DNA from: a virus
Reading direction: 5' to 3' (one strand)
Length of the DNA: 64,000 bases
Virus record (IMG/VR): IMGVR_UViG_3300045988_141640
Span: 1 to 64,000 of that record
This document shows positions 31,615-64,000 of the stretch, piece by piece. The position numbers were made by a program, and so were the translations under genes. Within the stretch, counting starts at the first letter, position 1. Each line of letters opens with the position of its first letter. The notes under the pieces were generated by a model. That model was not told where the DNA came from. It ran no database searches and was given only the letters and a program-made list of their open reading frames with translations.

Positions 31615-31632
31615 CTTTCTGTATGTATTTTG

Positions 31633-31690
31633 CAAATATAATGTTTTTTTAAATATTTTTTTGCTTATACACATTTTTTAACTACATTTG
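31633..31690. promoter_or_regulatory. divergent -7 boxes (minus TATATTTG 31633-31640; plus TACATTTG 31683-31690)
   Basis: Exact TAnnTTTG matches between divergent terL and the scaffold-like gene. Confidence 0.5.
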
Positions 31691-39933: not shown

Positions 39934-39950
39934 TATTTTTGCTATTTTTG
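39934..39950 (+). promoter_or_regulatory. two -7 boxes TATTTTTG (39934-39941, 39943-39950)
   Basis: TAnnTTTG matches upstream of the tape-measure ATG at 39973. Confidence 0.45.
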
Positions 39951-39972
39951 CAATAATTAAAAAACAATAACT

Positions 39973-46190: not shown

Positions 46191-46225
46191 CCAGTTTGAT
46201 TATGAACAAAAAATCCAATCACTTG

Positions 46226-46297
46226 AGGTGCTTAGCGGAATCGAACCGCTGTTGTCGGTTTTGCAGACCGTTGACTAAACCACTCATCCAAAGCACC
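46226..46297 (-). tRNA. tRNA-Cys: tRNA-Cys (anticodon GCA)
   Basis: Hand fold of the reverse complement: acceptor GGTGCTT/AAGCACC, T arm AGCGG-TTCGATT-CCGCT, anticodon loop CTGCAAA, D loop with GG. A -7 box TATATTTG lies at 46308-46315 on the same strand. Confidence 0.8.
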
Positions 46298-46351: not shown

Positions 46352-46368
46352 TATTTTTGCTATCTTTG
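46352..46368 (+). promoter_or_regulatory. -7 boxes TATTTTTG (46352-59) and TATCTTTG (46361-68)
   Basis: TAnnTTTG matches upstream of the ATG at 46391. Confidence 0.45.
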
Positions 46369-46390
46369 CACTAATAAACAATGTACACGA

Positions 46391-46888
46391 ATGGCTATAG
46401 CTAAATATTTTATAAAGAAAGGAAGCGATACGGCAAAGGATTTGTATGCCACATACAGGCTGTATATACTTGAAAGCAAGGGATTATGGGATTTGCCGAC
46501 AAGAAAGGAAGCCTATGCCGAAAAATGGTATGACAAGAACGGTCAGAAGGTGTACGAACCTGTCACGCCTGTTTACCAGCCAACGGAAGGAAGCATAACA
46601 TTTGCCGCTTTGGGAGATGTGGAAACGGTAAAGACGAATATCCGTTCGTTCTATTCATATATAACCAATGTGATACCTGCCACTCCCGGTACGCCATACG
46701 GTTCATCCTCTTTCTCTATATGGAATGATGTATGGGGAGAATCGGCAAAGCAGGTGATAAGATGCACGGGTTTTGAAACAGGTGCAAAGATGAGTTATCA
46801 GGACGTTCAGGACTTGCAGAACCCGGACCGACTTGTGTCCGCCTATACATTTTCGTTAAATTTCAGTATTGACCAACCAACTCTTTAA
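46391..46888 (+). CDS. putative distal tail protein, 165 aa
   Basis: Position directly after the tape-measure gene. Confidence 0.35.
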   Translation: MAIAKYFIKKGSDTAKDLYATYRLYILESKGLWDLPTRKEAYAEKWYDKNGQKVYEPVTPVYQPTEGSITFAALGDVETVKTNIRSFYSYITNVIPATPGTPYGSSSFSIWNDVWGESAKQVIRCTGFETGAKMSYQDVQDLQNPDRLVSAYTFSLNFSIDQPTL

Positions 46889-49800: not shown

Positions 49801-52699
49801 AACCAAAACATGTACACTTAAACTGGAAGATGGTGAGATCGGAGCTGTCGCAGTAGGTGATATCTGTATGGGTATCTATCATAACATCACTGGGAATGCT
49901 ACGGAGGATTATGACGATGGAAAGGGCAACAGGCGTTTTGCCGGATTCTGTACGGTCTATTTCACAATCACGGAAGTCACAGGTGAAAGAAACGAAACAT
50001 TCAAATACCAGTTGCGTCCTACATCTTCATCGTGGTCTTCTTCTTTCGATCCATTTGAAATGATGACATTCGTTGCATATGGTAACTTTACCAATGCAGG
50101 CCGTCAGACCTCAGTCTACGAAACAAGGACTTACACCCGTATGTTGTGGAAGCAGAATACATGGGAGATCTCCGCTGCCAATGTTGCCCTGCAATATGGA
50201 GACCTTTCTAATCTGAATATATTCGGATTGAACATGGATGGTTACTCCATGTATCTGAATAATATATATATGACAGGTATTATCAAGCAGATAAAGCCGG
50301 ACGGAACACCTGTACAGACTTTGAATTTCCGTGAGGAAGGATATATACCTGGCGTACATTACGATTACTACGACAGCTTGTCTTATAACGGAAGCATGTG
50401 GGCGTGTATCAATGAGGATGGTTCGTCTGCTGCACCGGGATCTAACGGCGATTGGCTGGAGATTGCTTCTAAAGGTGATACGGGAGCACCGGGGGCACCG
50501 GGAAAGGACGGTGTGAGCGTGACCAATAGCGGTCCGTGGTATTCCGGCTTGGTTGTTCCCAAAATGAGTATCGTTACAATGGGAGGAAGTTCGTTTCTTT
50601 CTAAGGTATCCACTACCAATCCTCCCTTGTGGTGCTGGACAGACAATGCCGGTAATCGGTTTACTTTCAATGATGGTGGCTATTGCTTGACGGGTGAGAT
50701 AAATACCGATGAATATGAACTTTTGGTTCAAAGCGGAAAGGACGGAAGAGATGGTACCAGTTATGAGAGGGTATTCATCCATACTACAACAGAGAGTAAA
50801 CCTGCCACTCCTTCCACGTCACAGACAGACGATTATGTGCCTTCCGGCTGGCATGATGATCCTGTAGGTGTTTCCAGCTCTCTGCCTTATGAGTGGATCA
50901 GTGAGAGGGAGAAGAAAAACGGTATATGGAGTAAATTCAGTGCTCCTGCCCTTTGGGCGAAGTACGGATTTGATGGTGCTGACGGTGCTGAGGGCGTAGC
51001 CGGAACGAGCATCATTTGGAAAGGTGATTTTTCCTCCGCTCCTTCCAATCCTCAGAACGGGTGGGCATACAAGAATACCACTGATAAGAAATCATATGTA
51101 TATCAGGATGGACAGTGGTATCAGATGACTATTGACGGAATTGATGGGAAGAACGGAAAAGACGGATTGAGTATTGTATGGAAAGGAGATCTCCAAACAC
51201 CTCCTTCTAATCCTCAGACCAACTGGGCATACCGGGATACCAATAATGGTCGTGTATATATATGGAACGGAACAGCATGGGCATTGATGGTTGTGGACGG
51301 ATCGGACGGTGCTGATGGTGCAGCCGGTTCTGACGGATTGAGCGTGTTTATAACTTATAATGACAGCACTTCCCAACCTTCTGTACCTACCGGGAACGGT
51401 ACTACTGGAGGATGGCATACAAATGCGACAAGTACAGCCATATGGATGTCACAGAAGGTTGCTGCGTCCGCATCTGACGGAGCATGGGGTACACCGATAA
51501 AAATCAAAGGTGACAAGGGTGATGATGGTGAAAAGGGGGACAAAGGAGATAAGGGAGATAAGGGAGATAAGGGAGATAAGGGAGATCAGGGCGTACAAGG
51601 AATACAGGGCTGTATCATACGGGATTCCGAATGGACAACCGGGGTAACGTACAGAAATGACGAAGCCCTTACAAGCGGCACGCGGTATATTGATATCGTA
51701 ATGGTGAGAAACAATAGTGCGGTGGACGGATGGGATGTTTATAAGTGTATTAAAACACATACATCTTCGTCTTCTATAACCTATACTAACACTACCTACT
51801 GGACGGAATTAAGTAATGTTGGTCCCATCTATACCAGTCTTATTATTGCCAAGAACGCCAGTCTTGATTTCGTCCAAGGGAATGAACTGATAATAAAGGA
51901 TTCGAATAATAATGTCGTAGCCGGTCTTACAGGAGGAAGCAGCAAGGAAGCCGGTACGACACCTGTAAGGATATGGGCTGGCGGTGGTGTTCCGGGCAGT
52001 GCTCCGTTCCGGGTGGATCAGGAAGGGAATCTTGTTGCAACGAAGGCAAATATCACGGGGACAATAACTGCCACAGGTGGAAATATTGGCGGTTTCAATA
52101 TTTCCACCTCAAGTATGGAATCGGTTTCCGGGAATAATGCCATGCTCCTTTCCGCCAACTTGGTAAGATTTACCGGAAGTTATTCAAGCGTGTTTATTGG
52201 AGCGGATACTTTTCCTTCATCTAGTGGGGGGGCAATATTATGCCCATCCCGTATTTCGGTTAATAGGAATATAACGAATACGGCGTATGGCAATGTGGGC
52301 ATGTATTTTGACATACAAGGTTCCCATGCTTATGATGATAATGATTTTCAGTATACCGGGAATCATGCGTTGTATATCGTCAAGGGGGACATCTGTGGGT
52401 TTAGGCTCAGATTGCGCAGAATAAGCAAGAGCACAACTTTGTCAGTGATGGATAGTGTTATCATGGCTGTAACGTCCGGTATTACGCTGACTGTTCCGTC
52501 CACTGCGGAAGACGGGCAGTTCTACTGGATAAGAAACGTTTCTGGTGGTAATGTGACCATAGCCGGAACAAATCTTGTCGGCTGGAATTCCGGGGAGGTC
52601 AGCACTTCGATAGGTTTGTCCAAGTCAAAGGCGGCAGCAATGTATTATGACAAGCATAATAACAAGTGGTTTATGAACTGGATTGATTGTTGGAATTAA
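46895..52699 (+). CDS. giant tail tip / host-specificity fibre protein with collagen-like repeats, 1934 aa
   Basis: Position after the tape-measure and Dit-like genes. Contains G-X-Y runs (GDTGAPGAPGKDG; GDKGDDGEKGDKGDKGDKGDKGDKGDQGVQGIQG), duplicated about 55-aa WKGD...W.Y modules and a GGSGTGSGTGSGGGSS linker. Confidence 0.65.
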   Translation: MILQIKRGNKVIAESADFSYSPSLQEVRKLTCEVVSVVPIEFKAYNSKSESEYDTVVYNGNTFILYQAPSGDNLNEAGKYKYSLLFYGKEVLLQNVAFLDIVSGTGGEINKIRYTHGGLFQFWGDAKQLAARIEANIESYNASLGAGYTGIGTWTLNVDAEGELTEDMIDITDGTNLFEALKNFYDKFYLNYYFSTTANGGIITITDKTRPSVNWTFKQGDGGGAVKVSSSVDTSTPVITRIIPQGGSRNVPPEYKKDAKPADESRYCPYILLPNDSDRNIRYYIDSEYGLKNYGVRGKTISNTFSGIYPSIRGKKLGDLYPSGLPEWDTYKADGEPDPQSGKVAGEGASASTRIDKIIGSTPIKSDDSDSFFIYMTSPGFNLGYKVYEDGDSSDKINDNVQPQYKPHAMFDKYRDFESFDIYGTRAYYDQPVKVTATFSGKMLFSILPIGSDAVGKKVKINLRMVLNRVLGQASPLKEVVIGEEGATGMLEIPYDKTSLVGYIEKGQNTTVTIRVEFTFDSDIPAESCKIGFSEEMTCNIHFGNQDGSQDRFYYKYASVTDAVFSMRTGTYTGTEFKINKNGIIPLYGEVNGDTGETEEDVAMFNKGARYKISCYRTDSDNAKLPLYTDGKSPSIAAGTEFVILNIVMPESYVTMAENTLEKAALDYLSRYDHENRTVSLDISSGFVAEHPNLFIDFIEGNMLKVRDDGIGVFDFSDNGQIVDMQLQIQSLEIKYSKDNMFPSYSCTIARRKILSFYERLAQENQTASTQNTTNITLGGSGTGSGTGSGGGSSNITNADHAKSAYTLDDDTPVLNWFLSALNDDEAEGIINFLKGLKISGNLINRIVKQGDRDVTYTDEDVMSALRVMVEIENSVEKMKEIFLRKDVADSTKFLLSMFAGAVFGKNGFASGLTGFGAKIFDTGHGEFESMFIRRFLEVPELRYNRVMVTLGDKWRAPGAGIIETVDTGTKTCTLKLEDGEIGAVAVGDICMGIYHNITGNATEDYDDGKGNRRFAGFCTVYFTITEVTGERNETFKYQLRPTSSSWSSSFDPFEMMTFVAYGNFTNAGRQTSVYETRTYTRMLWKQNTWEISAANVALQYGDLSNLNIFGLNMDGYSMYLNNIYMTGIIKQIKPDGTPVQTLNFREEGYIPGVHYDYYDSLSYNGSMWACINEDGSSAAPGSNGDWLEIASKGDTGAPGAPGKDGVSVTNSGPWYSGLVVPKMSIVTMGGSSFLSKVSTTNPPLWCWTDNAGNRFTFNDGGYCLTGEINTDEYELLVQSGKDGRDGTSYERVFIHTTTESKPATPSTSQTDDYVPSGWHDDPVGVSSSLPYEWISEREKKNGIWSKFSAPALWAKYGFDGADGAEGVAGTSIIWKGDFSSAPSNPQNGWAYKNTTDKKSYVYQDGQWYQMTIDGIDGKNGKDGLSIVWKGDLQTPPSNPQTNWAYRDTNNGRVYIWNGTAWALMVVDGSDGADGAAGSDGLSVFITYNDSTSQPSVPTGNGTTGGWHTNATSTAIWMSQKVAASASDGAWGTPIKIKGDKGDDGEKGDKGDKGDKGDKGDKGDQGVQGIQGCIIRDSEWTTGVTYRNDEALTSGTRYIDIVMVRNNSAVDGWDVYKCIKTHTSSSSITYTNTTYWTELSNVGPIYTSLIIAKNASLDFVQGNELIIKDSNNNVVAGLTGGSSKEAGTTPVRIWAGGGVPGSAPFRVDQEGNLVATKANITGTITATGGNIGGFNISTSSMESVSGNNAMLLSANLVRFTGSYSSVFIGADTFPSSSGGAILCPSRISVNRNITNTAYGNVGMYFDIQGSHAYDDNDFQYTGNHALYIVKGDICGFRLRLRRISKSTTLSVMDSVIMAVTSGITLTVPSTAEDGQFYWIRNVSGGNVTIAGTNLVGWNSGEVSTSIGLSKSKAAAMYYDKHNNKWFMNWIDCWN
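51545..51589 (+). repeat. 9-bp tandem repeat (GGAGATAAG x4 plus GGAGATCAG) encoding GDK collagen triplets
   Basis: Read directly from the sequence. Confidence 0.85.
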
Positions 52700-53630: not shown

Positions 53631-54020
53631 ATGGCAGACAAAAAATTAAATCAAGTATCGCAGTTGACGGATTTTGATTATGCGTTGGTTGTAAAAGGGG
53701 ATGACGTGGCAAAAGTTACAAAACAGCAGCTAGCTACAATACTGGGAGGACTGATGAATAGTTTGAAGCTGTTCCCGTTCATGAATAAAGGGAGATTAAC
53801 AGGAACAGATGACTTAAATAATGTATTAACATCAGGAATCTATGAAATTAGTGCCCCTACAACAGGGGTACTAAATGGGAAAGATATTCAATACGGAATC
53901 TTAATAGTATTCTCAGCAGGACAAAGAATACAGTTATTAGGTAATGGCTTATACGGAAATGCATATTTTAGGACAGGTAGAGATAATGGAACATGGTATG
54001 ATTGGGTATCTATATATTGA
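53631..54020 (+). CDS. small tail-fibre / receptor-binding protein: constant N-terminus (aa 1-37) plus currently expressed shufflon cassette A
   Basis: Fibre-like N-terminus KLNQVSQLTDFDYALVVKGDDVAKVTKQQLATI; crossover motif at codons 38-42 (LGGLM). Confidence 0.65.
   Translation: MADKKLNQVSQLTDFDYALVVKGDDVAKVTKQQLATILGGLMNSLKLFPFMNKGRLTGTDDLNNVLTSGIYEISAPTTGVLNGKDIQYGILIVFSAGQRIQLLGNGLYGNAYFRTGRDNGTWYDWVSIY
53742..53755 (+). repeat. shufflon crossover site S1 CTGGGAGGACTGAT
   Basis: First of seven copies of CTGGGRGRACT; lies inside the expressed gene. Confidence 0.7.
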
Positions 54021-54044
54021 CATAAAATCTATTCGAAACGAGAG

Positions 54045-54058
54045 CTGGGAGGACTGAT
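54045..54058 (+). repeat. shufflon site S2 CTGGGAGGACTGAT (direct orientation)
   Basis: Identical 14 nt to S1; in frame with cassette B. Confidence 0.7.
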
Positions 54059-54335
54059 TCCTACCGCAAGTAATAAAAATAAAGGTTTAGTTGCTCCTGA
54101 TATGTTCTCATTTACAAGGGATGCCGTAACAGACGCTAATGGTTGTAGTGTATTCGGTAGTTACAAGTTGTCCCCCGGAGTCTTGAATGCCCCTGATGGA
54201 ATTAAATATGGTGATGTGTTATTCGCCGTTCCATGGGATACAAACACAATACACCAATTTATATATACGATTAGCGGAGGTACGTATAGAAGGGTTGGAG
54301 GAAAAGAAAATTGGAGTGAATGGGTAAAAGATTGA
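54059..54335 (+). other. silent C-terminal cassette B (92 codons after LGGL)
   Basis: Reads LGGL-IPTASNKNKGLVAPDMFSF...; same frame as the active gene but separated from it by its stop codon. Confidence 0.6.
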
Positions 54336-54386
54336 CAAGAAAAAGTGGTATTTCCACGAACTGGGGGAATTCTTGGGTATAAAAAA

Positions 54387-54417
54387 CGGGTGGTCCGGTA
54401 CAAGCCGGTTCCACCCG
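54387..54417. terminator. bidirectional hairpin between convergent cassettes B and C
   Basis: CGGGTGG-T-CCGG...CCGG-TT-CCACCCG. Confidence 0.5.
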
Positions 54418-54427
54418 ATACGACAAA

Positions 54428-54695
54428 TCACTTATAATACGCTAATAGCCTATAATGAAGTTTTCGGCTAGTATTAGAATGAAAAGTTACACCATTTGAA
54501 CTAAACTCTATAGATAAGCTGGTTGATTTTTCACCTGCAATAATCTTACTTCTATCAGTATAAATATTGTCCGAAACTGTTAGGATGAAGCCGGAGATTG
54601 CATAATTATCATAAAACGCATATATGCCTTCTCGCAACTTCATGTTTACATCAACATCAGGCTTTAAATCAATTGTTCCAACTGAAGAAACCTCT
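54428..54695 (-). other. silent inverted cassette C (89 codons after LGGL)
   Basis: In frame with S3; the track M is a TTG; no ATG near the 5' end. Confidence 0.6.
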
Positions 54696-54709
54696 AGAAG
54701 TCCCCCCAG
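54696..54709 (-). repeat. shufflon site S3 (CTGGGGGGACTTCT on the minus strand)
   Basis: Inverted copy of the core. Confidence 0.65.
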
Positions 54710-54757
54710 TCCGCAGAGTGGGAGAAATTTTGTTGCAAATCTTTCCAATAAAATTGT

Positions 54758-55022
54758 CTATTGTTTAAGCATAAACTCCTTAAATATTCCCCATCCGTTA
54801 TAAAAACGCCTAAAGCCAACGCTATCGAAACCAATAGTATATACAATTTGTACGATATATCCAGCTGCGTCATTGTAAACAATCATAATGGAATAGTCCG
54901 GAACAACATTAATATTTCCACTCCCAAACAAACGATATATTCCATTTTCTTTAGTATTGTTTACTTCATCGTTTGTTTTGCAGGTCCCTTTTGACATGAA
55001 CGGGAACAATTTTAAATTCCCC
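54758..55022 (-). other. silent inverted cassette D (88 codons; closest homologue of cassette A)
   Basis: MGNLKLFPFMSKG versus MNSLKLFPFMNKG in cassette A. Confidence 0.65.
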
Positions 55023-55036
55023 ATCAGTCCCCCCAG
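55023..55036 (-). repeat. shufflon site S4 (CTGGGGGGACTGAT on the minus strand)
   Basis: 13 of 14 nt identical to S1. Confidence 0.7.
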
Positions 55037-55050
55037 AAGTAAAAAATAGT

Positions 55051-55303
55051 TTACTTGTGCGCAATATTCCTTACTCTGACAGATTCTTCTCCTAATAAAG
55101 CTGTTGCATACAATTTACTTTCTTGTACTCTATACTTGATTCGATAGTCTTTTTCTCCTAATATAAATGAATTATCGTAATTGATTACGACTAAACTTGA
55201 CACGGAATCTAAATAGGAATTTGAAACGTAATAAACACCAGTACCATTTGCTATTAGTGTTTCTTCTCCTTTTGCTAAAGTGAAAGAACTATAGGTATTT
55301 CCT
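55051..55303 (-). other. silent inverted cassette E (84 codons; no start codon, absent from the ORF track)
   Basis: My translation: LGGL-IGNTYSSFTLAKGEETLIANGTGVYYVS...RVRNIAHK-stop. Confidence 0.6.
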
Positions 55304-55317
55304 ATCAGTCCCCCCAG
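55304..55317 (-). repeat. shufflon site S5 (CTGGGGGGACTGAT on the minus strand)
   Basis: Identical to S4. Confidence 0.7.
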
Positions 55318-55342
55318 ATCGCCAACAGGCAGAAATTCTTGT

Positions 55343-55700
55343 TTAAATTCCTACCTGTGTTAGTGTGCTGATATCTATATTTACCTTGGTTGCTGAAATG
55401 GTATTATTCATCGGTATACGGTTAGCAAAACATACTACAGCGTAGCCCCATCCTGCTACATAGACATAATAGTTATCATCATCATCTTTATACATTTTTA
55501 TTGATAACGGTCCAGAATTATGAGTAATACATAAATTATTACCATAACCATGTCCGCAGATAATAGAGTAGTCATCAGCTATTGCTGAATTACCTTCACC
55601 AACAATCTTAACAATCAAATTTTTATTTCTCGTAAAATCAATCCTATATAAAGCCGGAGAGTCTGTGTTTGCTGATAGATTTATATAGTTTCCATTTTGC
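55343..55700 (-). other. silent inverted cassette F (119 codons)
   Basis: In frame with S6; the track M is a TTG. Confidence 0.6.
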
Positions 55701-55714
55701 AGAAGTCCTCCCAG
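55701..55714 (-). repeat. shufflon site S6 (CTGGGAGGACTTCT on the minus strand)
   Basis: Inverted copy; shares the GGACTTCT end with S3. Confidence 0.65.
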
Positions 55715-55733
55715 AAGGATTTTGCTAATCTTC

Positions 55734-56046
55734 TTAAGGCAATAAATTTTGATAAGCAATTAAAAAAGGAACCCTGCTTCCTTCAACTCCTTCAATTTTG
55801 GAAGTCATAATAGTAGTATAGTCATTTTCAAAAGTGAAAGTAAATAATGTTCCATCAACATATTCTTTATACCCTCCAATATATTTTATATTTTTAGTTG
55901 CTGGAGATATTACAGCTATTGATGGATATAAATTATAATATTGACTACATATCACCAATATGCCATTTGCTTTTATTCTTTTTGATTCACCTTTATGTAA
56001 CGAAAATGATTCACTAGTAAAACCATTGATAATATTATTTATCTTT
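55734..56046 (-). other. inverted cassette G (104 codons; has its own ATG two codons upstream of the site)
   Basis: MLLGELLKINNIINGF... Confidence 0.55.
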
Positions 56047-56060
56047 AACAGTTCTCCCAG
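56047..56060 (-). repeat. shufflon site S7, degenerate (CTGGGAGAACTGTT on the minus strand)
   Basis: Most divergent copy; encodes LGEL. Confidence 0.5.
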
Positions 56061-56129
56061 AAGCATTTTTTGTGGTTTATTTTGTAAATACAGAAGATTT
56101 TTTTTTAACTTTAAAACAAAAAGTTGAAT

Positions 56130-57368
56130 ATGTTAGAGAAGATCAGATACCGTTTGGTTTATAACCGACAAAACAAGTTAAATCGACAAGGGACAGCCCT
56201 AGTCCAAATAGAAGCCTATTTGAATCAGAGAAAGGTATATTTTAAAACCAATGTTTATCTAAAGCCGGAGTGTTGGAGTAAGGATGGCGCTCAAGTAATT
56301 AACCATCCGCAATCGAATGAGCTTAACGCAATGCTATACGAGAAGATACTGGAGTTGCAGGCTATAGAACTTAGCTACTGGAAAAGAGGGCTTGAATCAA
56401 ACCTTTCCACGTTAAAGGAGGCTGTAAAAAAGGGAATTAAACCAGTTGTGTCGTTTTTAAAATTTGCAATACAAGCGATAGAGAATTCTGATAGAAAACC
56501 GGGAACCAAGGATAACATGCTGGGCACGGTAGCCACTTTGAAGGAATTTCGGAACGTGATAGAGTTCACAGACATCAATTATACGTTTCTAAAGGAGTTT
56601 GACGCATTTCTTCGCAATAAGGGATTGAAGGTAAACACGGTAGGGAAACACATGAGAATACTTCGTACCTTGGTCAACGAAGCAATAAATGAAGGTTATA
56701 TATTACAGGAGGCATACCCTTTCCGTAAGTTCAAGATCAAGAAAGAGAAGAAGGAGCATAACTTCCTGATGCCCGCAGACTTGGAGAAGCTGGAGAATCT
56801 TGAACTGCCGGACAGGAAGAACAACAGTCGGCACATACTGGACGCATTTCTCTTCTGCTGCTATTGCGGATTGAGATTCTCTGATTTCAAGCAATTGACT
56901 TATAAAAATCTCGTAACAGTTGACGGAAAGGAATGGCTGGTCCTAAACAGCGTCAAAACAGGTGTGAAACTCAATATTCCGCTATATCTGCTGTTTAACG
57001 GGAAGGCTCTGGGTATAATGCGGAAGTACGACAGCATCGAACAACTGGCTGCATTAGGTTGCAATTCGGACACCAATCGGACGTTGCAGAAATTGGGAAG
57101 GATGGCGCGTATCAGCAAGAAATTTACCTACCATACAAGTCGTCATACTTGTGCTACTCTGTTGGTTCACCAAGGCGTTCCGATAACCACCGTCCAAAAA
57201 CTCTTGGGGCATACATCGGTCAAGACAACAGAGATATATTCCGAGGTGTTTGATGAAACGATTATCAAGGATCTGACAAGGGCTAACCAGAAGTATTCTA
57301 AAAGTAGAAATGTAAAACAAAATCAAATAAAATCTCAAAAATACCCGGAAAAATACCTCAGGCAGTAG
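56130..57368 (+). CDS. int: tyrosine recombinase / integrase (IntDOT-like, with N-terminal arm-binding domain)
   Basis: Arg box CGLRFSD, HTSRHTCATLL (HxxR) and LLGHTSVKTTEIYSEV (catalytic Tyr); first ATG at 56130 (track start 56124 is a TTG). Confidence 0.85.
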   Translation: MLEKIRYRLVYNRQNKLNRQGTALVQIEAYLNQRKVYFKTNVYLKPECWSKDGAQVINHPQSNELNAMLYEKILELQAIELSYWKRGLESNLSTLKEAVKKGIKPVVSFLKFAIQAIENSDRKPGTKDNMLGTVATLKEFRNVIEFTDINYTFLKEFDAFLRNKGLKVNTVGKHMRILRTLVNEAINEGYILQEAYPFRKFKIKKEKKEHNFLMPADLEKLENLELPDRKNNSRHILDAFLFCCYCGLRFSDFKQLTYKNLVTVDGKEWLVLNSVKTGVKLNIPLYLLFNGKALGIMRKYDSIEQLAALGCNSDTNRTLQKLGRMARISKKFTYHTSRHTCATLLVHQGVPITTVQKLLGHTSVKTTEIYSEVFDETIIKDLTRANQKYSKSRNVKQNQIKSQKYPEKYLRQ

Positions 57369-57611
57369 AAATCTATAGAGGCTATCTGTTTTATACTTGT
57401 TTTTCCGACTTCAATATATTTATATTCTATTTGTAAATAAAAATGTAAATAATTTACCTTTATTTTTCTATAAATATTTCTTACTGTTCTAGAATTTTTC
57501 CTTATTGTGCTAGAAGTAAAAAATATTGCATTAATAGCAATTTGGTAAGCCTTAACAGTGCGGCATATAAGGGAAGTACATTGCTTCTTTCTATGAGTCC
57601 AGGGTTATAAG

Positions 57612-57655
57612 AACAATCCTCCCCCCCTTACCGTTTATCAGTAAGGGGGATTGTT
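57612..57655. terminator. strong hairpin downstream of the minus-strand gene 57655-57972
   Basis: AACAATCC...CCCCCTTAC pairs with GTAAGGGGGATTGTT. Confidence 0.55.
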
Positions 57656-57972
57656 TATTTCGTTTTCATTAGTTTTTCCTCAAACTCCGCAATGATACAG
57701 TCTGCATCACCGCCATGCACCCAATTATCTAATACGGAAGAGAGAACTTCTGTTGCTTTTTCAACCGAAACATTATCTGTTACTTTGCCACGACACTTAA
57801 ATTCAGTATTTATCACTTCTGATTCAGAAGCTAAACTAATCCAACATAGACACGCGATTCCAAATTCATCCTGACATAAATCACGTAACGAACATTTTGA
57901 ACAATCTTTATGTTTCGTTTCCTTCAATTCATGTAGCACTCCGTCTATTATTATTCCGTTCTTTACTTCCAT
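57655..57972 (-). CDS. hypothetical Cys-rich protein, 105 aa
   Basis: ORF track 57655-58032; start moved to MEVKNG, preceded by AAGGAG. Confidence 0.45.
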   Translation of the reverse strand: MEVKNGIIIDGVLHELKETKHKDCSKCSLRDLCQDEFGIACLCWISLASESEVINTEFKCRGKVTDNVSVEKATEVLSSVLDNWVHGGDADCIIAEFEEKLMKTK

Positions 57973-58063
57973 ATTCAATCTCCTTTCGTTCCAAAATAAA
58001 TAGCACCAAGTATGACAAACGAGCATCCGCAAAGGAATGCAAATATATGACTAACTATCGGGT

Positions 58064-58888
58064 TCATTTTATTCCTTTAAAAATATGACTAATAACATCT
58101 ACTGTCCATCCGTTTCCTAACAGCCCCATGCCTATATGTGGCTGTACCGACTTGGTGTATCCTTCGGGTACGGTCTGTAATCTTTCCGCTTCCGTAATAT
58201 TGGGTGTTCTGAAACCTTTTTCGGAATTACAGTCAGGTGAGTTGAATATCAACGGTGTAAGTGATTTTTTATATCTTCTCAACAGTGATTCGGGGTTCTT
58301 GGCAAACCTGTTCCATGATTCAAGCATACACCATGACTTTTTCTTCTCAACATATCCATCAGTGATGATGTCCTTGAACAGTATTCCCTTGTCCTTCCAT
58401 GCAGGTATTTCCCAGTTGCACCAGTAGTATCTTGCTCTCATTTGTGCGGAAAAATCGGAGCTGTTGATATACACATAGTCTACTCCAAGATGTGACGAAA
58501 TCAAATCAGCCCAATCGGATTTCATCTTCACATTTTCAAGCAGAAACTTTATATTAGGATTGAACTGTCTGATATGGTTCAATATGTTGACATATTCAAA
58601 GAATAATCCCGAACGCTCGCCATCGAAGTTCAGTTTCTCTTTCCCTAACTGTGAAAAATCCTGGCATGGTGTTCCACCAATAAGTAAATCAATATCTTCC
58701 CACTGTATATCCCATTTATTCCAGTTCCTAATATCCCCTAATTCAATTATATCGGGATAATTATCCAGTGCAACTTTGATAGACGGTTCGTTTATTTCGC
58801 TTGCGTAATACTTGTCTACCTTTATGCCTGCTCTTTCCAGTGCAATACGTCCGCAAGCTATCCCGTCACATAAACTCAATACGTTCAT
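58064..58888 (-). CDS. DNA (cytosine-5)-methyltransferase, short form (274 aa)
   Basis: Motif I LSLCDGIACG, motif IV GGTPCQDFS, motif VI LLENV, motif VIII SAQMRAR, motif X GNGWTV. Confidence 0.85.
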   Translation of the reverse strand: MNVLSLCDGIACGRIALERAGIKVDKYYASEINEPSIKVALDNYPDIIELGDIRNWNKWDIQWEDIDLLIGGTPCQDFSQLGKEKLNFDGERSGLFFEYVNILNHIRQFNPNIKFLLENVKMKSDWADLISSHLGVDYVYINSSDFSAQMRARYYWCNWEIPAWKDKGILFKDIITDGYVEKKKSWCMLESWNRFAKNPESLLRRYKKSLTPLIFNSPDCNSEKGFRTPNITEAERLQTVPEGYTKSVQPHIGMGLLGNGWTVDVISHIFKGIK

Positions 58889-58966
58889 AGATATGTTTTT
58901 TTTTAATTTTCAGCAAATATACGACATAAAACCGTATGCAACCAATACGTTTAACTATTTTTTAAT

Positions 58967-58997: not shown

Positions 58998-59249
58998 ATG
59001 CAGTTTTCCATAGTACCAAAAATAGATGCCGAGATTATGTTTTCGGAAGATGATCTGTCCGTTTTCAGACAATCGACAGACGGTCTGTATTATATGATCC
59101 ATACCGAGAAGGTCATGGAAGTGATGCCTATGACGTTGCCGGATGACGAAACGGAACACCCTTTCCCTTACGACACATACGACACGGGCACAAGAGAGTT
59201 TGAGAAGCTGCTTTTATCTGATGAGTGGGCTAAAACAGACGTGATATGA
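58998..59249 (+). CDS. hypothetical acidic protein, 83 aa
   Basis: ORF track 58812-59249; start moved to MQFSIV, downstream of the promoter box. Confidence 0.45.
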   Translation: MQFSIVPKIDAEIMFSEDDLSVFRQSTDGLYYMIHTEKVMEVMPMTLPDDETEHPFPYDTYDTGTREFEKLLLSDEWAKTDVI

Positions 59250-60979
59250 GAAAGATAGGTTTTTTTAACATAGGAAGGCTTGGACTTGTAAAATCGGCAG
59301 GTACAGGAAAAACCGATATAAACAAGGTGATAGAAAAATGGATACCAAAACACATGGTGTTCTGGTACGATATGTCAAAGCCTGTGGATACATATATTCC
59401 TAGCGTTACCTATGCAAATCCTTTTGTTAATGATGGTGGAAAATTAACTTATGATAATGCTATAAATAAGTGTATAATAACCCATACACCTACAAATAAC
59501 AATAATATTGCATTTTGGCAAATAATTGTAAAACCGTTACAATATGTAGAATCTTATAAAATACGTGTAACAGGATTGCCAACAGGTTTCACCATTAAAG
59601 GAAGGCTTGGATATGATATTCAGATAACATCTGATGGAGAATATGACATACCTGAATACAGGAACAGTAGCACAACAAGCTCATCTTATCCTGGATTTTA
59701 TTTGGCAGGCGATAATGTGAATGATGTGGATTGTAATATTGTGGTAGAAGAAATACCTACAAAACAATCCGTTCCCACAAACGAGATACTAAAAGCCAAT
59801 CCATACCTGCAAGACCATAGCGGAAACAACAGGCCGCTGAAACTTAACAATTTCCTGTTCGCTGCAATGAGCGGTGTGGGTGGGTATGACATTTCTAGCA
59901 CCAATATTCTACCCGATAGAGCAAATGCTACTGTTACGGATAACAGGGTTATACATATTACTAAGAAACTATCCACCACAGATAACATGGTAAACATAGT
60001 TCCGTCAAATTCCAATCCTACACATAGATTTAAGGTTACAGGACTTTCTGATGGTAGGCAGGTTAGTTTGGTAAACAGAAATGGCGGATTTTATACTTTT
60101 GACAACGGGGAACATGAAGTTACATTGACTTATCCCGAAGGAACCACTTCATTGTATAACGCCATAGGAGTTACAGGGGATATAGGAGATATGGACGTAA
60201 CAATAGAGTTCCTGCCTAAATATCCCAACGCCCTAGTGACAGACGGAGTGGATGATTACGGTGTTGTGGAGAACTTGCAGCAGGGCGTTAAGGTGTTGTT
60301 TGTAACTATCAATCCGTTTGTTGATGGAAAGTTTATCTATGACCAAAGACTGAATACTACTGAACCTTGGCTGTTTGCCGTATTCAATGACAAAGGTAGT
60401 ATTGCTTATAATAGTAGGAACTCAAACGGCAAGACCTATATTGATGGAACACTGAATGAATCTACAATAGTTTCCGCTTTATTAAACAAAAAGCAAATAA
60501 TCACCATAGTAAACAATGATGTGACAGGTGATAAAACTAAAACTCCTGTATTCTTTAGCAATACTGACCATGATAGCGGATGGATTAGTTCAGCTTTCTA
60601 CAACTCCTTCGGGTTCGATTCCGTCCCCACCAAACAGAATGACGGATTCACCGAGCAGGATTTGATTGACTACTATATACCGAAGGCTATCGTAACGATA
60701 ACGGTGGTGGACGTATCAGGCTCACCCATACAGGATGCAACGGTCACGGTGGAAGGTATACAGTACAAAACATTGTCTGACGGTACGGTAAAAGTACGGG
60801 GTATGGCAAATAGCACAATGTCGCTGTCTGTAAAGAAAGACGGGTATATGCCGTTTTCTGACAACTCGTGGAAGTTTGCCGATTCAAGGATAACGCTAGA
60901 GGTGCTTAGGAATACCGTAATTACCGAAAATGGATACAGCATATTGCTTGAAAACGATGGTTTAATATTAACGGAATAA
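59246..60979 (+). CDS. tail-fibre-like protein with a C-terminal carboxypeptidase-regulatory-like beta-sandwich, 577 aa
   Basis: ITVVDVSGSPIQDATVTVEGIQYKTLSDGTVKV pattern; ATGA overlap with the upstream gene; lies upstream of the DGR target. Confidence 0.4.
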   Translation: MRKIGFFNIGRLGLVKSAGTGKTDINKVIEKWIPKHMVFWYDMSKPVDTYIPSVTYANPFVNDGGKLTYDNAINKCIITHTPTNNNNIAFWQIIVKPLQYVESYKIRVTGLPTGFTIKGRLGYDIQITSDGEYDIPEYRNSSTTSSSYPGFYLAGDNVNDVDCNIVVEEIPTKQSVPTNEILKANPYLQDHSGNNRPLKLNNFLFAAMSGVGGYDISSTNILPDRANATVTDNRVIHITKKLSTTDNMVNIVPSNSNPTHRFKVTGLSDGRQVSLVNRNGGFYTFDNGEHEVTLTYPEGTTSLYNAIGVTGDIGDMDVTIEFLPKYPNALVTDGVDDYGVVENLQQGVKVLFVTINPFVDGKFIYDQRLNTTEPWLFAVFNDKGSIAYNSRNSNGKTYIDGTLNESTIVSALLNKKQIITIVNNDVTGDKTKTPVFFSNTDHDSGWISSAFYNSFGFDSVPTKQNDGFTEQDLIDYYIPKAIVTITVVDVSGSPIQDATVTVEGIQYKTLSDGTVKVRGMANSTMSLSVKKDGYMPFSDNSWKFADSRITLEVLRNTVITENGYSILLENDGLILTE

Positions 60980-60983
60980 TATA

Positions 60984-63011
60984 ATGGAAGATAATCTTAA
61001 AATTTCACAGATGCCTCCCGTTGAAACCGCTACGGGAGAAGAGATGATACCATGTGTGACGGGAAGCCCTAAACAGAACAAATCCGTCACGGTGTCCAAG
61101 ATAAGACAGGGTATGGTAAAGGACGAAAGCTATGTGCATACCGACAACAACTTTACTACCCAGTTAAAAACCAAACTTGACGGGATACAGGAAGGCGCAC
61201 AGAAGAATACTGTCATAGGCGTGAAAGGTAATGCCGAACAGTCTTACAGGACGGGTAATGTAAATATAACGAAAGACAATATAGGTCTGTCAAAGGTGGA
61301 CAATACGTCCGATGCGGAAAAGCCCGTATCCACCGCGCAGAAAGCAGCCATAGACAAGAAGGTAGACAAGGTGGACGGCAAGGCGTTATCCACAAACGAC
61401 TTTACCAATGACTACAAAACCCTTCTCGAACAGATAAAGATGCAGCAGGGGAACATATATGGAGTGGAGATGAGAAGAGGGCAGGCAGACCCAGCCTTTC
61501 AGACATGGATAGGAAAGGAAGAGTTCAAGACATCACATCCTATCCTCAACTCTTTCCGTGCGGCAAAGGTAAAGGACGGTAAGGTAGTAGGATTCCTTGA
61601 CCAGACCAATTTCTTCAAAATGGCTGACGGTAGCCCGTCAAATATTGTTATTGACGGAACTGATGTAACAGATGACGGAAGTGACATCATGCTTGTAAAC
61701 ACCAAGCCTTTCTGGATAATCAACGGAGGAACGGATGATACATACGAAAGAAGGCTCGTCAGTGACGCTCCGTTTACATACGGTGGCGATACGGCCATAG
61801 AGATAAAACCGTTCGGAATGAGTATCGGTTACTCCACGATAAAGGATGGGAAGCAGAGATCTATTTTTGACAACACGGTAAAAGGAACAACATCAGCAGG
61901 AAATCTAGGCGTGAACATAATGGAAGGAAATGGATGGCCTACGACAAACGTGTCACGTTTTGATTACGAGAAATACGCTAGGGCAAAGAACCAGGACATC
62001 ACAAAGAACTATCCTTACGCCAATGCGTTCGCCCTTGACCTTGAAGTATGGTGCACGCTTCTGTTCATTAAGTTCAGAACAAAAGACCTGCACGCACAGT
62101 CTGTTTGCGGAAAAGGAATATCATCCAACGATTCAGCCCCCGATGCGTCAAGCTGGGGGAAAATGACAGGCGTCAGATTCAAGAAGGCGGACGGTCAGAC
62201 CTATGTGTATTACAATATGAACGGGCAAGGATTTAAAGCGTCCGAAACAGGAACGACTTACAATTTCTCCCAACTCATAAACAATTACCATCCTTGCATG
62301 AAGATGTTTGAAGCACAGCTTGCCATGTCATACGCAAAAGAACACAGTGTTGCGCCTGATACCGAGTTTGTATATGAAAATACAAAATACAAATATTATA
62401 ATTTTCAAGGTCATAACGGATTGGCTGACGGGGAAATGTCAGGTATCGTAGCCAAGTTTGTCAATGCAACTGTAACTAGCGGATGGAGTATTCCTGACAA
62501 TGCGGCAGTTACAAACCGTGAAATAGAGATATGCTTCACACAGCCTATCATTCGCGGACGTATTGCCGGGTGGGGAGATATATGGATGTGGTACAGTGGG
62601 ATAGATTGTGTCATGCACGATTCTACATCCATAGACATCTATCAGACCTATGACGTGAACAATCTGACTACGGACAATGTAGCCACAGAAAAGAATCCTG
62701 GGGAATCTTACGGTTTTGAGAATACATATGAATTTGTCGGTTCTATGGCTAGAGGTGAAGGATATATAACGAAGAACTTTAAGAACTCTCTTATTGGAGA
62801 GGTCAAGGGAAGCAATCTTCACACGGGGGAATGCCATTACAACTGGTTTATGGGAAATGCAGGTTCGGGTAAGATTGGAAGGTGTGGTGTTTACTTTGGT
62901 GGGTCGAACGGCGACTCTTGTTCTCTGCGGCTTGGTTGTGCGTACTATGCCCCTGAAACTGCGGACACGAGCATCGGTGGCGGCTTTCGTTGTTCAATAA
63001 CCCAAGCCTAA
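60984..63011 (+). CDS. DGR target protein: tail-fibre-like, with a C-terminal variable region
   Basis: Fibre-like N-terminus; the C-terminal ...VYFGGSNGDSCSLRLGCAYYAPETADTSIGGGFRC carries the VR. Confidence 0.8.
   Translation: MEDNLKISQMPPVETATGEEMIPCVTGSPKQNKSVTVSKIRQGMVKDESYVHTDNNFTTQLKTKLDGIQEGAQKNTVIGVKGNAEQSYRTGNVNITKDNIGLSKVDNTSDAEKPVSTAQKAAIDKKVDKVDGKALSTNDFTNDYKTLLEQIKMQQGNIYGVEMRRGQADPAFQTWIGKEEFKTSHPILNSFRAAKVKDGKVVGFLDQTNFFKMADGSPSNIVIDGTDVTDDGSDIMLVNTKPFWIINGGTDDTYERRLVSDAPFTYGGDTAIEIKPFGMSIGYSTIKDGKQRSIFDNTVKGTTSAGNLGVNIMEGNGWPTTNVSRFDYEKYARAKNQDITKNYPYANAFALDLEVWCTLLFIKFRTKDLHAQSVCGKGISSNDSAPDASSWGKMTGVRFKKADGQTYVYYNMNGQGFKASETGTTYNFSQLINNYHPCMKMFEAQLAMSYAKEHSVAPDTEFVYENTKYKYYNFQGHNGLADGEMSGIVAKFVNATVTSGWSIPDNAAVTNREIEICFTQPIIRGRIAGWGDIWMWYSGIDCVMHDSTSIDIYQTYDVNNLTTDNVATEKNPGESYGFENTYEFVGSMARGEGYITKNFKNSLIGEVKGSNLHTGECHYNWFMGNAGSGKIGRCGVYFGGSNGDSCSLRLGCAYYAPETADTSIGGGFRCSITQA
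62884..62990 (+). repeat. DGR variable repeat (VR)
   Basis: Aligns with the TR at 63163-63272: 14 substitutions, all at TR adenines, plus one 3-nt gap. Confidence 0.85.
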
Positions 63012-63031
63012 TTTTTCACAAAGTGAAAAAT
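63011..63031 (+). other. perfect 9-bp hairpin ATTTTTCAC-AAA-GTGAAAAAT immediately 3' of VR and the stop codon
   Basis: Read directly; the position is analogous to the homing-enhancing hairpin/cruciform described for the Bordetella phage DGR. Confidence 0.5.
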
Positions 63032-63068
63032 CCCATTCCCAAAACTTGCAAAATATATTAATTATGTT

Positions 63069-63076
63069 TAAGTTTG
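63069..63076 (+). promoter_or_regulatory. -7 box TAAGTTTG upstream of the TR
   Basis: TAnnTTTG match 87 nt upstream of the TR start. Confidence 0.4.
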
Positions 63077-63162
63077 CATAATAAAAATCTAACCAAATGC
63101 GTCAGCAAAGTGAAATAAGTCTGTCAAAGGCGGTTAGTTGAAAAAAGGCGGTCTGTAGAATG

Positions 63163-63272
63163 GTGGTGTTTACTTTGGTGGTAAGTCGAACAACGACAAT
63201 TGTTCTCTGCGGAATGGTTATGCGAACAATGCCCCTGAAACTGCGAACACGAACATCGGTGGCAGCTAACGT
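63163..63272 (+). repeat. DGR template repeat (TR)
   Basis: 110 nt; AAC/AAT-rich at the positions that differ from the VR. Confidence 0.85.
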
Positions 63273-63430
63273 GCTAAAAAAATTACTGCTATACAGAAGC
63301 CTCGTCAGGAAGATGAAAAATGTCAAGACAACCCATTGTTTGAGGATGGGAACTTATTAGTACATTTACAGTTGTAGGTATATGGAAAGTTAGTTATCTT
63401 TGGCTCAACGGACAAAGAAAAGCACGTAAG

Positions 63431-64000
63431 ATGAAAAGATTGAATAATATTTTTGAAACGATAGGCAGTGTAGATAATATTATCTCTGCTGCTGAAAAGG
63501 CAAAGAAAGGAAAGAGGAATCACAGGGGTGTGAGGGATTATGAGAAACATAAGGATGAATATCATCAGAATGTTTATCAGATGCTCAAAGACAAATCATA
63601 CCATGTAAGCAAGTATGAGGTGATAGAAAAAGTGACTGATGCAGGAAAGGTAAGGGAGATACACAAACTCCCGTTTTACCCGGACAGGATTATCCAGCAC
63701 AGCCTTTTGATACCCATGATGGACAGATGGACGAAAAGCCTTACACTTGATTCATATAACTGTCTGCCTAAAAGGGGAATTACAAGTAAGGTAAAAAAGC
63801 ATTCCCTTGTGAGAAAGATGAAACGGACATTACTTGAAATGGACAAAAACGGAAAAATATACGTTTTGAAAATGGATATTAAGAAGTTTTATCCGTCCGT
63901 AAGGCACAGTGTTTATAAGAAGGCATACAGCAAAGATTTGAAAGACAGGGATGCGTTATGGCTTATGAATACGCTTAATTATAGCAATAAAGGTCTGGCT
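63431..64000 (+). CDS. DGR reverse transcriptase (5' part; runs off the window)
   Basis: My translation is open for 190 codons: MKRLNNIFETIGSVDNIISAAEKAKKGKR...KVREIHKLPFYPDRIIQHSLL...VLKMDIKKFYPSV, with RT motifs 1-3. It lies directly downstream of the TR and has a -7 box TATCTTTG at 63395-63402. Confidence 0.85.
   Translation, partial: MKRLNNIFETIGSVDNIISAAEKAKKGKRNHRGVRDYEKHKDEYHQNVYQMLKDKSYHVSKYEVIEKVTDAGKVREIHKLPFYPDRIIQHSLLIPMMDRWTKSLTLDSYNCLPKRGITSKVKKHSLVRKMKRTLLEMDKNGKIYVLKMDIKKFYPSVRHSVYKKAYSKDLKDRDALWLMNTLNYSNKGLA

Follow-up and report, generated by a model that had tools for sequence, protein, structure and literature searches.

Does the DNA between positions 60,984 and 64,000 of IMG/VR virus record IMGVR_UViG_3300045988_141640 encode a system that rewrites the end of a phage fibre gene? 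We analysed the first 64,000 nucleotides of this record (positions 1 to 64,000, hereafter the window), in which a preliminary description had recognised a diversity-generating retroelement (DGR) targeting the C-terminus of a 675-aa tail-fibre-like protein. Our results indicate that the locus is very probably a DGR, with the order target gene (carrying the variable repeat, VR), template repeat (TR) and reverse transcriptase (RT) and no gene for the accessory protein Avd, in an uncultured human-gut phage. Positions are those of the window unless a contig is named, and the features of the cassette all lie on the plus strand.

The target gene (60984–63011) encodes a 675-aa tail-fibre-like protein with a C-terminal variable region. 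Local alignment paired the 107-nt VR at its 3′ end (62884–62990) with the 110-nt TR (63163–63272, 29 A), a non-coding copy 282 nt downstream, over 107 nt and one 3-nt gap. The proposed pairing was thus confirmed, and the codon changes listed in the preliminary description were reproduced exactly: all 14 mismatches (VR positions 62910, 62911, 62916, 62917, 62931, 62932, 62938, 62943, 62946, 62964, 62971, 62982, 62986 and 62987) fall on TR adenines. With 27 A among the 107 aligned bases, the probability of this arising by chance is 1.6e-10. When every A of the TR was replaced by N, the resulting pattern matched only the VR and the TR in the 64-kb window, and shuffled sequences gave an expectation of 0. 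A scan restricted to the non-A positions gave 62/62 for both repeats and at most 30/62 elsewhere; no third copy or remote second VR was found in the window, which therefore contains a single target. Translated in the frame of the VR, the TR reads GVYFGGKSNNDNCSLRNGYANNAPETANTNIGGS*R; it contains a stop and is rich in AAC and AAT codons, as a non-coding template should be. Of its 29 adenines about 24 are genuinely diversified, and the corresponding sites span approximately 62893–62973; two adenines were invariant in the eleven VRs of our first sample of relatives.

That first sample came from a scan with the A-to-N pattern, which yielded nine IMG/VR contigs. As it was biased by the pattern, the collection was repeated by RT protein similarity, giving 57 further IMG/VR loci with RT identities of 93–100% on contigs of up to 99 kb. 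The final population set comprised 59 loci with 55 distinct TR/VR pairs; the contigs compared are consensus assemblies from different samples. In the 55 pairs, 754/1406 TR adenines were mismatched in the VR (53.6%), as against 22/4085 non-A bases (0.54%), and 40 pairs had no non-A mismatch at all. Mismatches at non-A positions of relatives, which the preliminary description had named as evidence to the contrary, are therefore rare. The VR bases found opposite TR adenines were G (313), T (246), C (195) and retained A (652). The mismatch frequency at adenines is near the 52% misincorporation of bRT-Avd, the enzyme of the BPP-1 DGR, in vitro (PMC7826257).

The population set also allowed the direction of sequence flow to be followed. 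The 59 loci contain 15 TR variants, seven of them present in at least two loci, versus 55 different VRs. TR alleles of the lineage differ from one another at non-A bases, for example ...GGTAATTTGAACCATGATCCTTCG... versus ...GGTTATGCGAACAATGCCCCTGAA..., and at 157/158 positions where they do so the VR carries the base of its own TR, which is what transfer from TR to VR predicts. Contig L001, assembled from another sample and near-identical to the window, departs from it at 2/7430 nt, and one of the two differences, VR 62967, is a TR-A site. Eleven relatives of greater divergence, with RT identities as low as 29%, have the same layout with A-specific VR/TR pairs. These observations bear on an alternative explanation, in which the target gene's 3′ end was merely duplicated (or two copies underwent gene conversion) beside a group II intron or retron RT unrelated to it, and mutagenic retrohoming plays no part. 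Were the non-coding copy decaying, it would be expected to change at every base and to differ from one relative to the next; instead it is the TR that is conserved, and the coding copy that varies, approximately 100-fold more at A sites than elsewhere.

Some individual loci depart from the general pattern. In L070 (IMGVR_UViG_3300045988_135317) the VR equals its own TR at every adenine yet has a VR-type 3′ end, and is either the product of a non-mutagenic homing event or a TR/VR chimera of assembly. The 5′ third of the VR is unmutated in L053 and L061. Contig L003 (Logan ERR1578642) ends at window position 62902, the start of the diversified stretch, and L001 ends at window position 63429, just past the TR; these breaks in contigs from other samples hint at VR heterogeneity within a sample, or at the repeat itself, as their cause.

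The 3′ limit of the exchanged segment was examined in the same loci. In characterised DGRs this limit is set by IMH and IMH* (initiation of mutagenic homing), a fixed G/C-rich boundary of transfer whose sequence is not the same in recipient and donor (Wu et al., PMC5758913). The VR ends in an undiversified G/C-rich segment resembling IMH (62974–62990, TCGGTGGCGGCTTTCGT), and the TR in an IMH*-like counterpart (63257–63272, TCGGTGGCAGCTAACGT). The final 10 nt read CGGCTTTCGT in 51/55 VRs versus CAGCTAACGT in 53/55 TRs. Three of the 14 differences counted above (AGC to GGC and TAA to TTT; VR 62982, 62986 and 62987) lie here and are identical in the VRs of 51/55 relatives. The distinction is kept in relatives with RT identities of 43–69%, where the VR has GGC TTY CGT (Gly-Phe-Arg) and the TR AGC TWA CGT. 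On this sequence comparison, the three differences are best read as a fixed boundary of the IMH/IMH* type and not as products of mutagenesis. The adenine-specific signature originally claimed for all 14 substitutions therefore stands for the divergence as a whole, but not for the AGC to GGC and TAA to TTT changes.

The RT gene (63431–64000) begins 158 nt past the end of the TR; the window stops within it and covers the first 190 of 429 codons. As previously reported, this part carries the motifs KVREI, DRIIQHSL and LKMDIKKFYPSV; it matches the PHROG 1423 reverse transcriptase family (8.5e-38). In relatives whose RT is identical to the window part at 188/190 residues, the gene is a full 429-aa open reading frame (ORF; L006 3851–5140) that passes the Pfam RVT_1 threshold. 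Its best sequence match in the Protein Data Bank (PDB) is bRT (8ub7_A, E 5.7e-21), with group II intron and retron-type RTs at approximately 1e-5. For P0121, a homologue of 416 aa with 99% identity, the AlphaFold2 (AF2) model (pLDDT 93) likewise had 8ub7_A as its best fold match (E 5.4e-19, TM 0.83 on target). The preliminary description had allowed that DGR-specific motifs might be missing past the window end. The relatives contain both IGNPDAQ, at the place of IGSLTSQ in bRT, and the catalytic FADD, which answers to YxDD in the DGR signature. Two residues of bRT that promote adenine misincorporation, R74 and I181 (PMC7826257), align with identical residues in this RT, in window KVREI and in IGNPDAQ respectively.

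The kinship of the RT also bears on the duplication explanation. The only NCBIfam RT matches are to group II intron and retron RTs, and the database names of many relatives are "retron-type RT", both of which would fit an unrelated enzyme. The NCBIfam scores are weak, however (38 bits against a cut-off of 300 for group II, 19.5 against 235 for retron), and in both sequence and fold the RT is far nearer to bRT than to intron or retron RTs. An Rfam search of 62700–64000 returned no family, of group II introns, retrons or otherwise, the only hit being a chance match to a long non-coding RNA (E 0.63). Together with the conservation of the TR and the A-specific variation of the VR, these results leave a plain duplication beside an unrelated RT exceedingly improbable.

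In phage databases the best matches of the RT are those of crAss-like phages, including LMMB, whose RT has been placed in lineage 3 and whose cassette has the same avd-less layout (PMC7290462). Our RT shares 33–38% pairwise identity with these crAss-like phage RTs, an indirect sign that it may belong to lineage 3. Beyond the catalytic part, residues ~300–429 (L006 4750–5140) form a C-terminal domain of approximately 120 aa, predicted to contain three strands, a helix and two strands, an order of elements that in the model resembles an OB-like fold. This extension is conserved down to the RT of phage csAssE-Sib (31% identity over the full length), and is lacking in RT relatives of 317–330 aa from Bacteroidota genomes. 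Used as a profile, it gave no match among PDB sequences or in Pfam. C-terminal extensions of up to 150 aa without a recognisable motif occur in approximately 20% of DGR RTs (PMC5758913).

The VR encodes aa 634–669 of the 675-aa target, in the C-terminus ...GVYFGGSNGDSCSLRLGCAYYAPETADTSIGGGFRCSITQA, as had been proposed. Residues 71–158 match PHROG tail-fibre and minor-tail families. Pfam and NCBIfam gave nothing useful for the protein, and a profile of 37 homologues searched against PDB sequences gave only noise. Structure prediction, which had been suggested as a check, gave an AF2 model that is confident for aa 160–675, the 155 N-terminal residues being poorly modelled. Among PDB structures, this model is matched best by TaqVP, the C-type-lectin-fold variable protein of a DGR (Foldseek probability 0.99, E 3e-3); variants of Mtd, the BPP-1 target, matched at non-significant scores only. 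Ranked first among its BFVD matches is a "receptor binding complex" fragment (96% identity) in an entry for an uncultured gut myovirus, and tail fibre or tail collar fibre proteins from crAss-like phages come next. The description of the target as tail-fibre-like with a C-type-lectin tip is thus supported, although less strongly than the other parts of the proposal, and we regard the lectin-type variable tip predicted by the model with moderate confidence.

The target has more than 1000 homologues. Its nearest 90%-identity cluster contains 6131 distinct sequences, and more than 100 homologues share the fixed scaffold GVxFGGxSxxxxCSLRxGxAxxAPxxAxxxxGGGFRC, in which x positions vary, and have hypervariable C-termini. 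A 49%-identical homologue is encoded in a contig with a crAss capsid gene. The target is a member of a fibre family that has been used repeatedly by DGRs in gut Bacteroidales phages.

Bacteroidota promoters have the consensus TTTG / TAnnTTTG. The sequence TTG, followed after 20 nt by TAAGTTTG (63046–63076), fits this consensus and is a possible promoter for a transcript of TR and RT. Downstream of this putative promoter is a conserved 5′ flank of approximately 78 nt (63085–63162), nearly identical in the window, L006 and L015 and largely kept in L017 (61% identity in the target protein). Synthesis of cDNA in BPP-1 depends on RNA upstream of the TR (bioRxiv 10.1101/2023.10.23.563531).

The 158-nt spacer between TR and RT (63273–63430) is likewise conserved in relatives. 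It was aligned from eight DGRs, with RTs ranging from near-identical to 43% identical and all with A-specific VR/TR pairs. RNAalifold gave a structure of four helices (63303–63306/63312–63315, 63332–63337/63345–63350, 63351–63358/63388–63395 and 63363–63369/63378–63384) in which 90% of cells are paired and 15/24 pairs show compensatory changes. None of 500 shuffled alignments reached this level of covariation, and slid controls gave 3–5 compensatory pairs. The spacer is therefore a structured, covarying RNA. A duplex between the TR 3′ end (GCUAAC) and spacer GUUAGU, seen with five sequences, was dropped, as with eight more divergent sequences the segment pairs with AACUUAUU and covaries. An alternative priming duplex is possible, to judge from the letters, between TR ACGUG and the conserved spacer motif CA(C/A)ACGG; both are invariant, which places this duplex beyond covariation testing. 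TR-flanking RNA of BPP-1 is wrapped around bRT-Avd, where it sets a TR:spacer duplex in place for cis-priming, and the survey that described conserved RNA elements covered DGRs with Avd (bioRxiv 10.1101/2023.10.23.563531). The spacer RNA is therefore a plausible functional counterpart in this Avd-less clade, and may serve in cis-priming.

An inverted repeat, ATTTTTCAC-AAA-GTGAAAAAT (63011–63031), begins at the stop codon of the target gene, approximately 20 nt past the VR. Its 9-bp stem has a predicted DNA fold of −6.2 kcal/mol (z = −3.1), and the stem sequence does not vary across 58 related loci. Most loci have a GAA loop and the window type has AAA; three carry the loop inverted, as TTC, on the same stem. 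Extruding palindromes tend to yield loop inversions, and the TTC loop suggests flipping of this kind in an extruded palindrome. In L017 the hairpin is kept, with a C-GAA-G apex and a different lower stem. BPP-1 requires a hairpin downstream of its VR, and the hairpins described for phage DGRs have G/C-rich stems of 7–10 bp with a 4-nt GRNA loop (PMC3240598). By analogy, the inverted repeat is a likely candidate for a DNA hairpin or cruciform that takes part in target recognition. Alternatively it could be a mere transcription terminator of the target gene with no role in retrohoming, as its start at the stop codon, its A/T-rich stem and its 3-nt loop, so unlike those of the characterised phage hairpins, would allow. 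However, it is not followed by a T-run, and its stem would be a weak one for an intrinsic terminator, while its distance from the end of VR/TR homology is inside the 4–34 bp range reported for DGR hairpins. The inverted loops are as expected for a palindrome that extrudes in DNA, and the hairpin is retained in L017 in spite of the altered lower stem. We therefore consider the terminator explanation possible but rather unlikely, and retain the inverted repeat as a candidate recognition hairpin.

Several points weigh against interpreting the locus as a DGR. The VR diversity is known from consensus assemblies and is diversity between samples, not within one population. The VR is 3 nt shorter than the TR and is therefore not a plain whole-length copy of the present TR. 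The RT has IGxxxAQ where the signature is [I/V/L]GxxxSQ, with A in place of S, and since the window covers it to residue 190 only, we infer an intact RT in this exact genome from its relatives. The C-type-lectin assignment is one Foldseek match of modest quality (E 3e-3, TM 0.42 on target), with no Pfam or PDB sequence match for the target. The hairpin, A/T-rich and with a 3-nt loop, is outside the published consensus of phage DGRs. Lastly, the ORFs to either side of the cassette, searched in the window and over the 5 kb downstream in relatives, gave no match to Avd or any other known accessory protein.

To our knowledge, Avd is essential in the only DGR that has been studied biochemically. 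An accessory protein (Avd, HRDC, MSL or CH1) is found in about 70% of DGRs and is not defining for all; architecture A1, without accessory genes, accounts for 29% of DGRs, and lineage 3 is without avd (PMC5758913). The cassette described here, with the order target-TR-RT and no accessory gene, is as in architecture A1 of Wu et al.

A small acidic protein (101–118 aa, pI 4.6–5.6) adjoins the cassette and is conserved, with no Pfam or PHROG family. Its ORF is located at L006 5144–5500, just past the window end, and at L015 10621–10977, L017 4350–4694, L095 4299–4649, L097 2338–2664, L098 2252–2578 and L018 8953–9258. It follows the RT in this lineage and lies between target and TR in two others. 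In a crAss-like contig it comes directly after the target homologue, with no RT match among the genes called 7 kb on either side. Because of this arrangement we rate the small acidic ORF as an unlikely substitute for Avd. The protein seems to travel with the fibre gene and not with the RT, perhaps as a chaperone or partner. More speculatively, the Avd-less phage DGRs of the clade with the extended RT may use a ribonucleoprotein (RNP) solution other than that of BPP-1, in which the RT C-terminal domain and the spacer RNA could take over the RNA-positioning role of Avd, with the small acidic protein as a possible further partner; we put this forward tentatively, as a minority possibility.

The length difference between the repeats, which the preliminary description had passed over while giving their coordinates correctly, results from a one-codon deletion in the VR between 62902 and 62903 (the VR reads GGTGG^GTCG), opposite TAA in the TR (63182–63184). 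Most relatives have a full-length VR, with TGG, TAG, TTG or TAA at this place. The same deletion is found in the window, L001 and L010/L032, and L019 has another 3-nt deletion, adjoining AAC. The VR of L010/L032 differs from that of the window at many A sites, including one upstream of the gap, and it follows that the deletion either outlasted later rounds of homing, with 5′ crossovers on either side of it, or arose more than once. After an AA to GG change the sequence at the deletion is TGGTGGTGGG, a slippage-prone run. Length differences between VR and TR occur in 7% of DGRs, usually adjoining AAC, and such indels have been attributed to RT slippage (Wu et al., PMC5758913). The one-codon deletion is a minor variant and no evidence against function.

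The deletion nevertheless raises the question of whether the element is dead in this genome, with a broken RT or a VR no longer open to full replacement, so that the repeats are a fossil of past activity. That the RT is visible to residue 190 only would be compatible with this, as would the 3-nt loss from the VR, and DGR remnants are many (Wu et al.), with incomplete cassettes in 66/91 crAss genus I genomes (PMC7290462). Yet the full 429-aa RT ORF is present in 57 related contigs at 93–100% identity, and the part in the window agrees with it at 188/190 residues. L010/L032, with the same deletion, has a different VR that includes an A-site change upstream of the deletion, and the near-clonal L001 differs from the window at a TR-A site within the VR. 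The TR, IMH, hairpin and spacer are all intact. A decayed element is on these grounds very unlikely, and the DGR may well be active at present in this genome.

If the locus operates as other DGRs do, a transcript, probably started from a promoter in the VR-TR gap, would contain the conserved 5′ flank, the 110-nt TR and the structured spacer of ~158 nt. The downstream RT would copy the TR into cDNA, misincorporating at about half of the template adenines, and this cDNA would replace the VR at the 3′ end of the gene for the 675-aa tail-fibre-like protein. Transfer would halt on the 3′ side at the fixed G/C-rich, IMH-like boundary beside the DNA hairpin. Approximately 24 adenine sites in AAC- and AAT-type codons would be rewritten in this way, recoding some 15 residues on a fixed scaffold. 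The outcome would be a changed C-type-lectin-like tip at the C-terminus, presumably with altered receptor specificity.

The element resembles the BPP-1 DGR (mtd-avd-TR-brt) in being phage-borne, with a tail-fibre gene that has the VR at its 3′ end and the TR downstream, in its adenine specificity of approximately 50% per A site, and in having an IMH/IMH*-type boundary, an inverted repeat after the VR and a structured RNA between TR and RT; bRT is the closest solved homologue of its RT, with R74 and I181 conserved. It differs from BPP-1 in lacking avd, in its longer RT (429 aa versus 328 aa for bRT) with the extra C-terminal domain and IGNPDAQ in place of IGSLTSQ, in its A/T-rich hairpin with a 3-nt loop, and in its 675-aa target, which has no sequence similarity to Mtd and only a weak fold match. 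Avd-less DGRs of architecture A1 and lineage 3, such as that of the crAssphage LMMB (Wu et al. 2018; PMC5758913, PMC7290462), are closer in organisation. They share the order target-VR(IMH)-TR(IMH*)-RT with no accessory gene, and crAss-like DGRs likewise occur in phages of gut Bacteroidales and have a tail (collar) fibre target with the same predicted fold. The phage of the window is, however, not crAss-like, having a 2059-aa tape-measure gene, an integrase and a distant terminase, and whereas IMH and IMH* of LMMB are reported to be identical, those of the window differ at the three fixed positions. The DGR of csAssE-Sib (OR575929, annotated with VR, IMH, TR, IMH* and RT) has the same layout, a distant homologue of the target (27% identity over aa 270–674) and an RT with the same C-terminal extension; it belongs to a 151-kb phage, and has the RT motif IGTPTSP and other IMH sequences.

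The DGR of a "widespread Bacteroides phage" to which the preliminary description alluded is that of Hankyphage (PMC6199706). Hankyphage is also a temperate gut Bacteroides phage whose DGR acts on a C-terminal C-type-lectin region of a large structural protein. It has no DNA similarity to the phage of the window. Its genome of 43 kb is that of a Mu-like transposable phage, its target measures 2200 aa, and a small ORF with Avd-like pI and molecular weight adjoins its RT; none of these features is shared by the phage of the window. TaqVP of Thermus aquaticus (PDB 5vf4), the best fold match of the target, is similarly a variable protein of C-type-lectin fold with a C-terminal VR, but it shares 10–11% sequence identity with the target (TM 0.42 on target) and is bacterial, not a phage fibre.

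By its gene content the window is phage DNA, and the phage that carries the element is an uncultured, temperate, long-tailed phage of the human gut of approximately 95 kb; related contigs of the lineage measure ~90–99 kb and come from human gut samples. Its genes include a primase/helicase (7756–9222), antirepressor-like genes, a large terminase (29899–31674, minus strand) that is only ~31–33% identical to the terminases of LoVEphage-like Bacteroides and Phocaeicola phages, a major head protein (33215–34342), a 2059-aa tape-measure protein, a 1934-aa fibre and a tyrosine integrase (56124–57368). A tRNA-Cys gene (GCA; 46225–46297, minus strand) lies between the tape-measure and fibre genes. Within the 1934-aa fibre gene, 50972–51345 contains short direct repeats of the GAYGGT type and an 88-nt repeat pair of 70% identity, and these letters suggest collagen-like or repeated fibre modules. 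Two TnpB-like genes (OrfB_IS605 with a Cas12f-like TNB domain) are located ~1 kb apart on the plus strand (18294–19508 and 20530–21720), and an IS1595-family transposase on the minus strand (11120–12073); L006 has a further IS1595 transposase ~3 kb downstream of the DGR. Motifs of the form TTTG...TAnnTTTGCA recur upstream of large genes (39934–39978, 46352–46396 and 11906–11941). They resemble Bacteroidota promoters and would be consistent with a Bacteroidales host.

Directly upstream of the target gene is a 577-aa ORF (59246–60979, plus strand) with a weak CarboxypepD_reg-like domain match. A homologue of 573–577 aa precedes the target gene in this lineage and in a relative of 71% identity. 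The ORF is thus a syntenic partner and, from its position, probably encodes a tail or fibre component. Between the 1934-aa fibre gene and the block formed by the 577-aa ORF, target and DGR lies an island of ~5 kb (54000–58900) with the integrase and a C5 cytosine methyltransferase (58064–58888, minus strand). In the 71%-identity relative two methyltransferases occupy the position of the island and no integrase is called in the 7 kb inspected ahead of the target gene, while the order 573-aa ORF, target, TR, RT and three small ORFs is kept.

The cassette gave no megablast match in INPHARED, a curated collection of phage genomes, and the phage is therefore neither Hankyphage nor any deposited isolate. 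The exact A-to-N pattern of the TR had 0 matches in GTDB representative genomes. The lineage, carried by dozens of IMG/VR contigs of 50–99 kb, is undescribed but common in the human gut. The preliminary description had placed the interest of the locus mainly in its context. This was not borne out, as the host is a temperate long-tailed ~95-kb gut phage, the cassette layout has already been described and we saw nothing unusual in its surroundings.

Gut Bacteroidales phages are rich in DGRs, the Avd-less target-TR-RT layout has been catalogued, and specialists would expect a DGR here. The element is in this sense a well-supported yet ordinary new DGR, of catalogued layout, in a lineage absent from INPHARED. 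It is at the same time a clean example, supported at the population level, of a phage DGR whose target is a presumed receptor-binding tip. Less routine are the strength of the evidence from natural populations, the fixed IMH/IMH* pair, the covarying spacer RNA and the RT C-terminal domain. The mechanistic question that it raises is how DGRs without Avd assemble an RNP competent for priming. Three handles on this question are provided by the covarying spacer RNA, the conserved C-terminal domain of the RT and the natural TR alleles that trace transfer, and the C-terminal domain could make this clade a useful model for Avd-independent DGRs.

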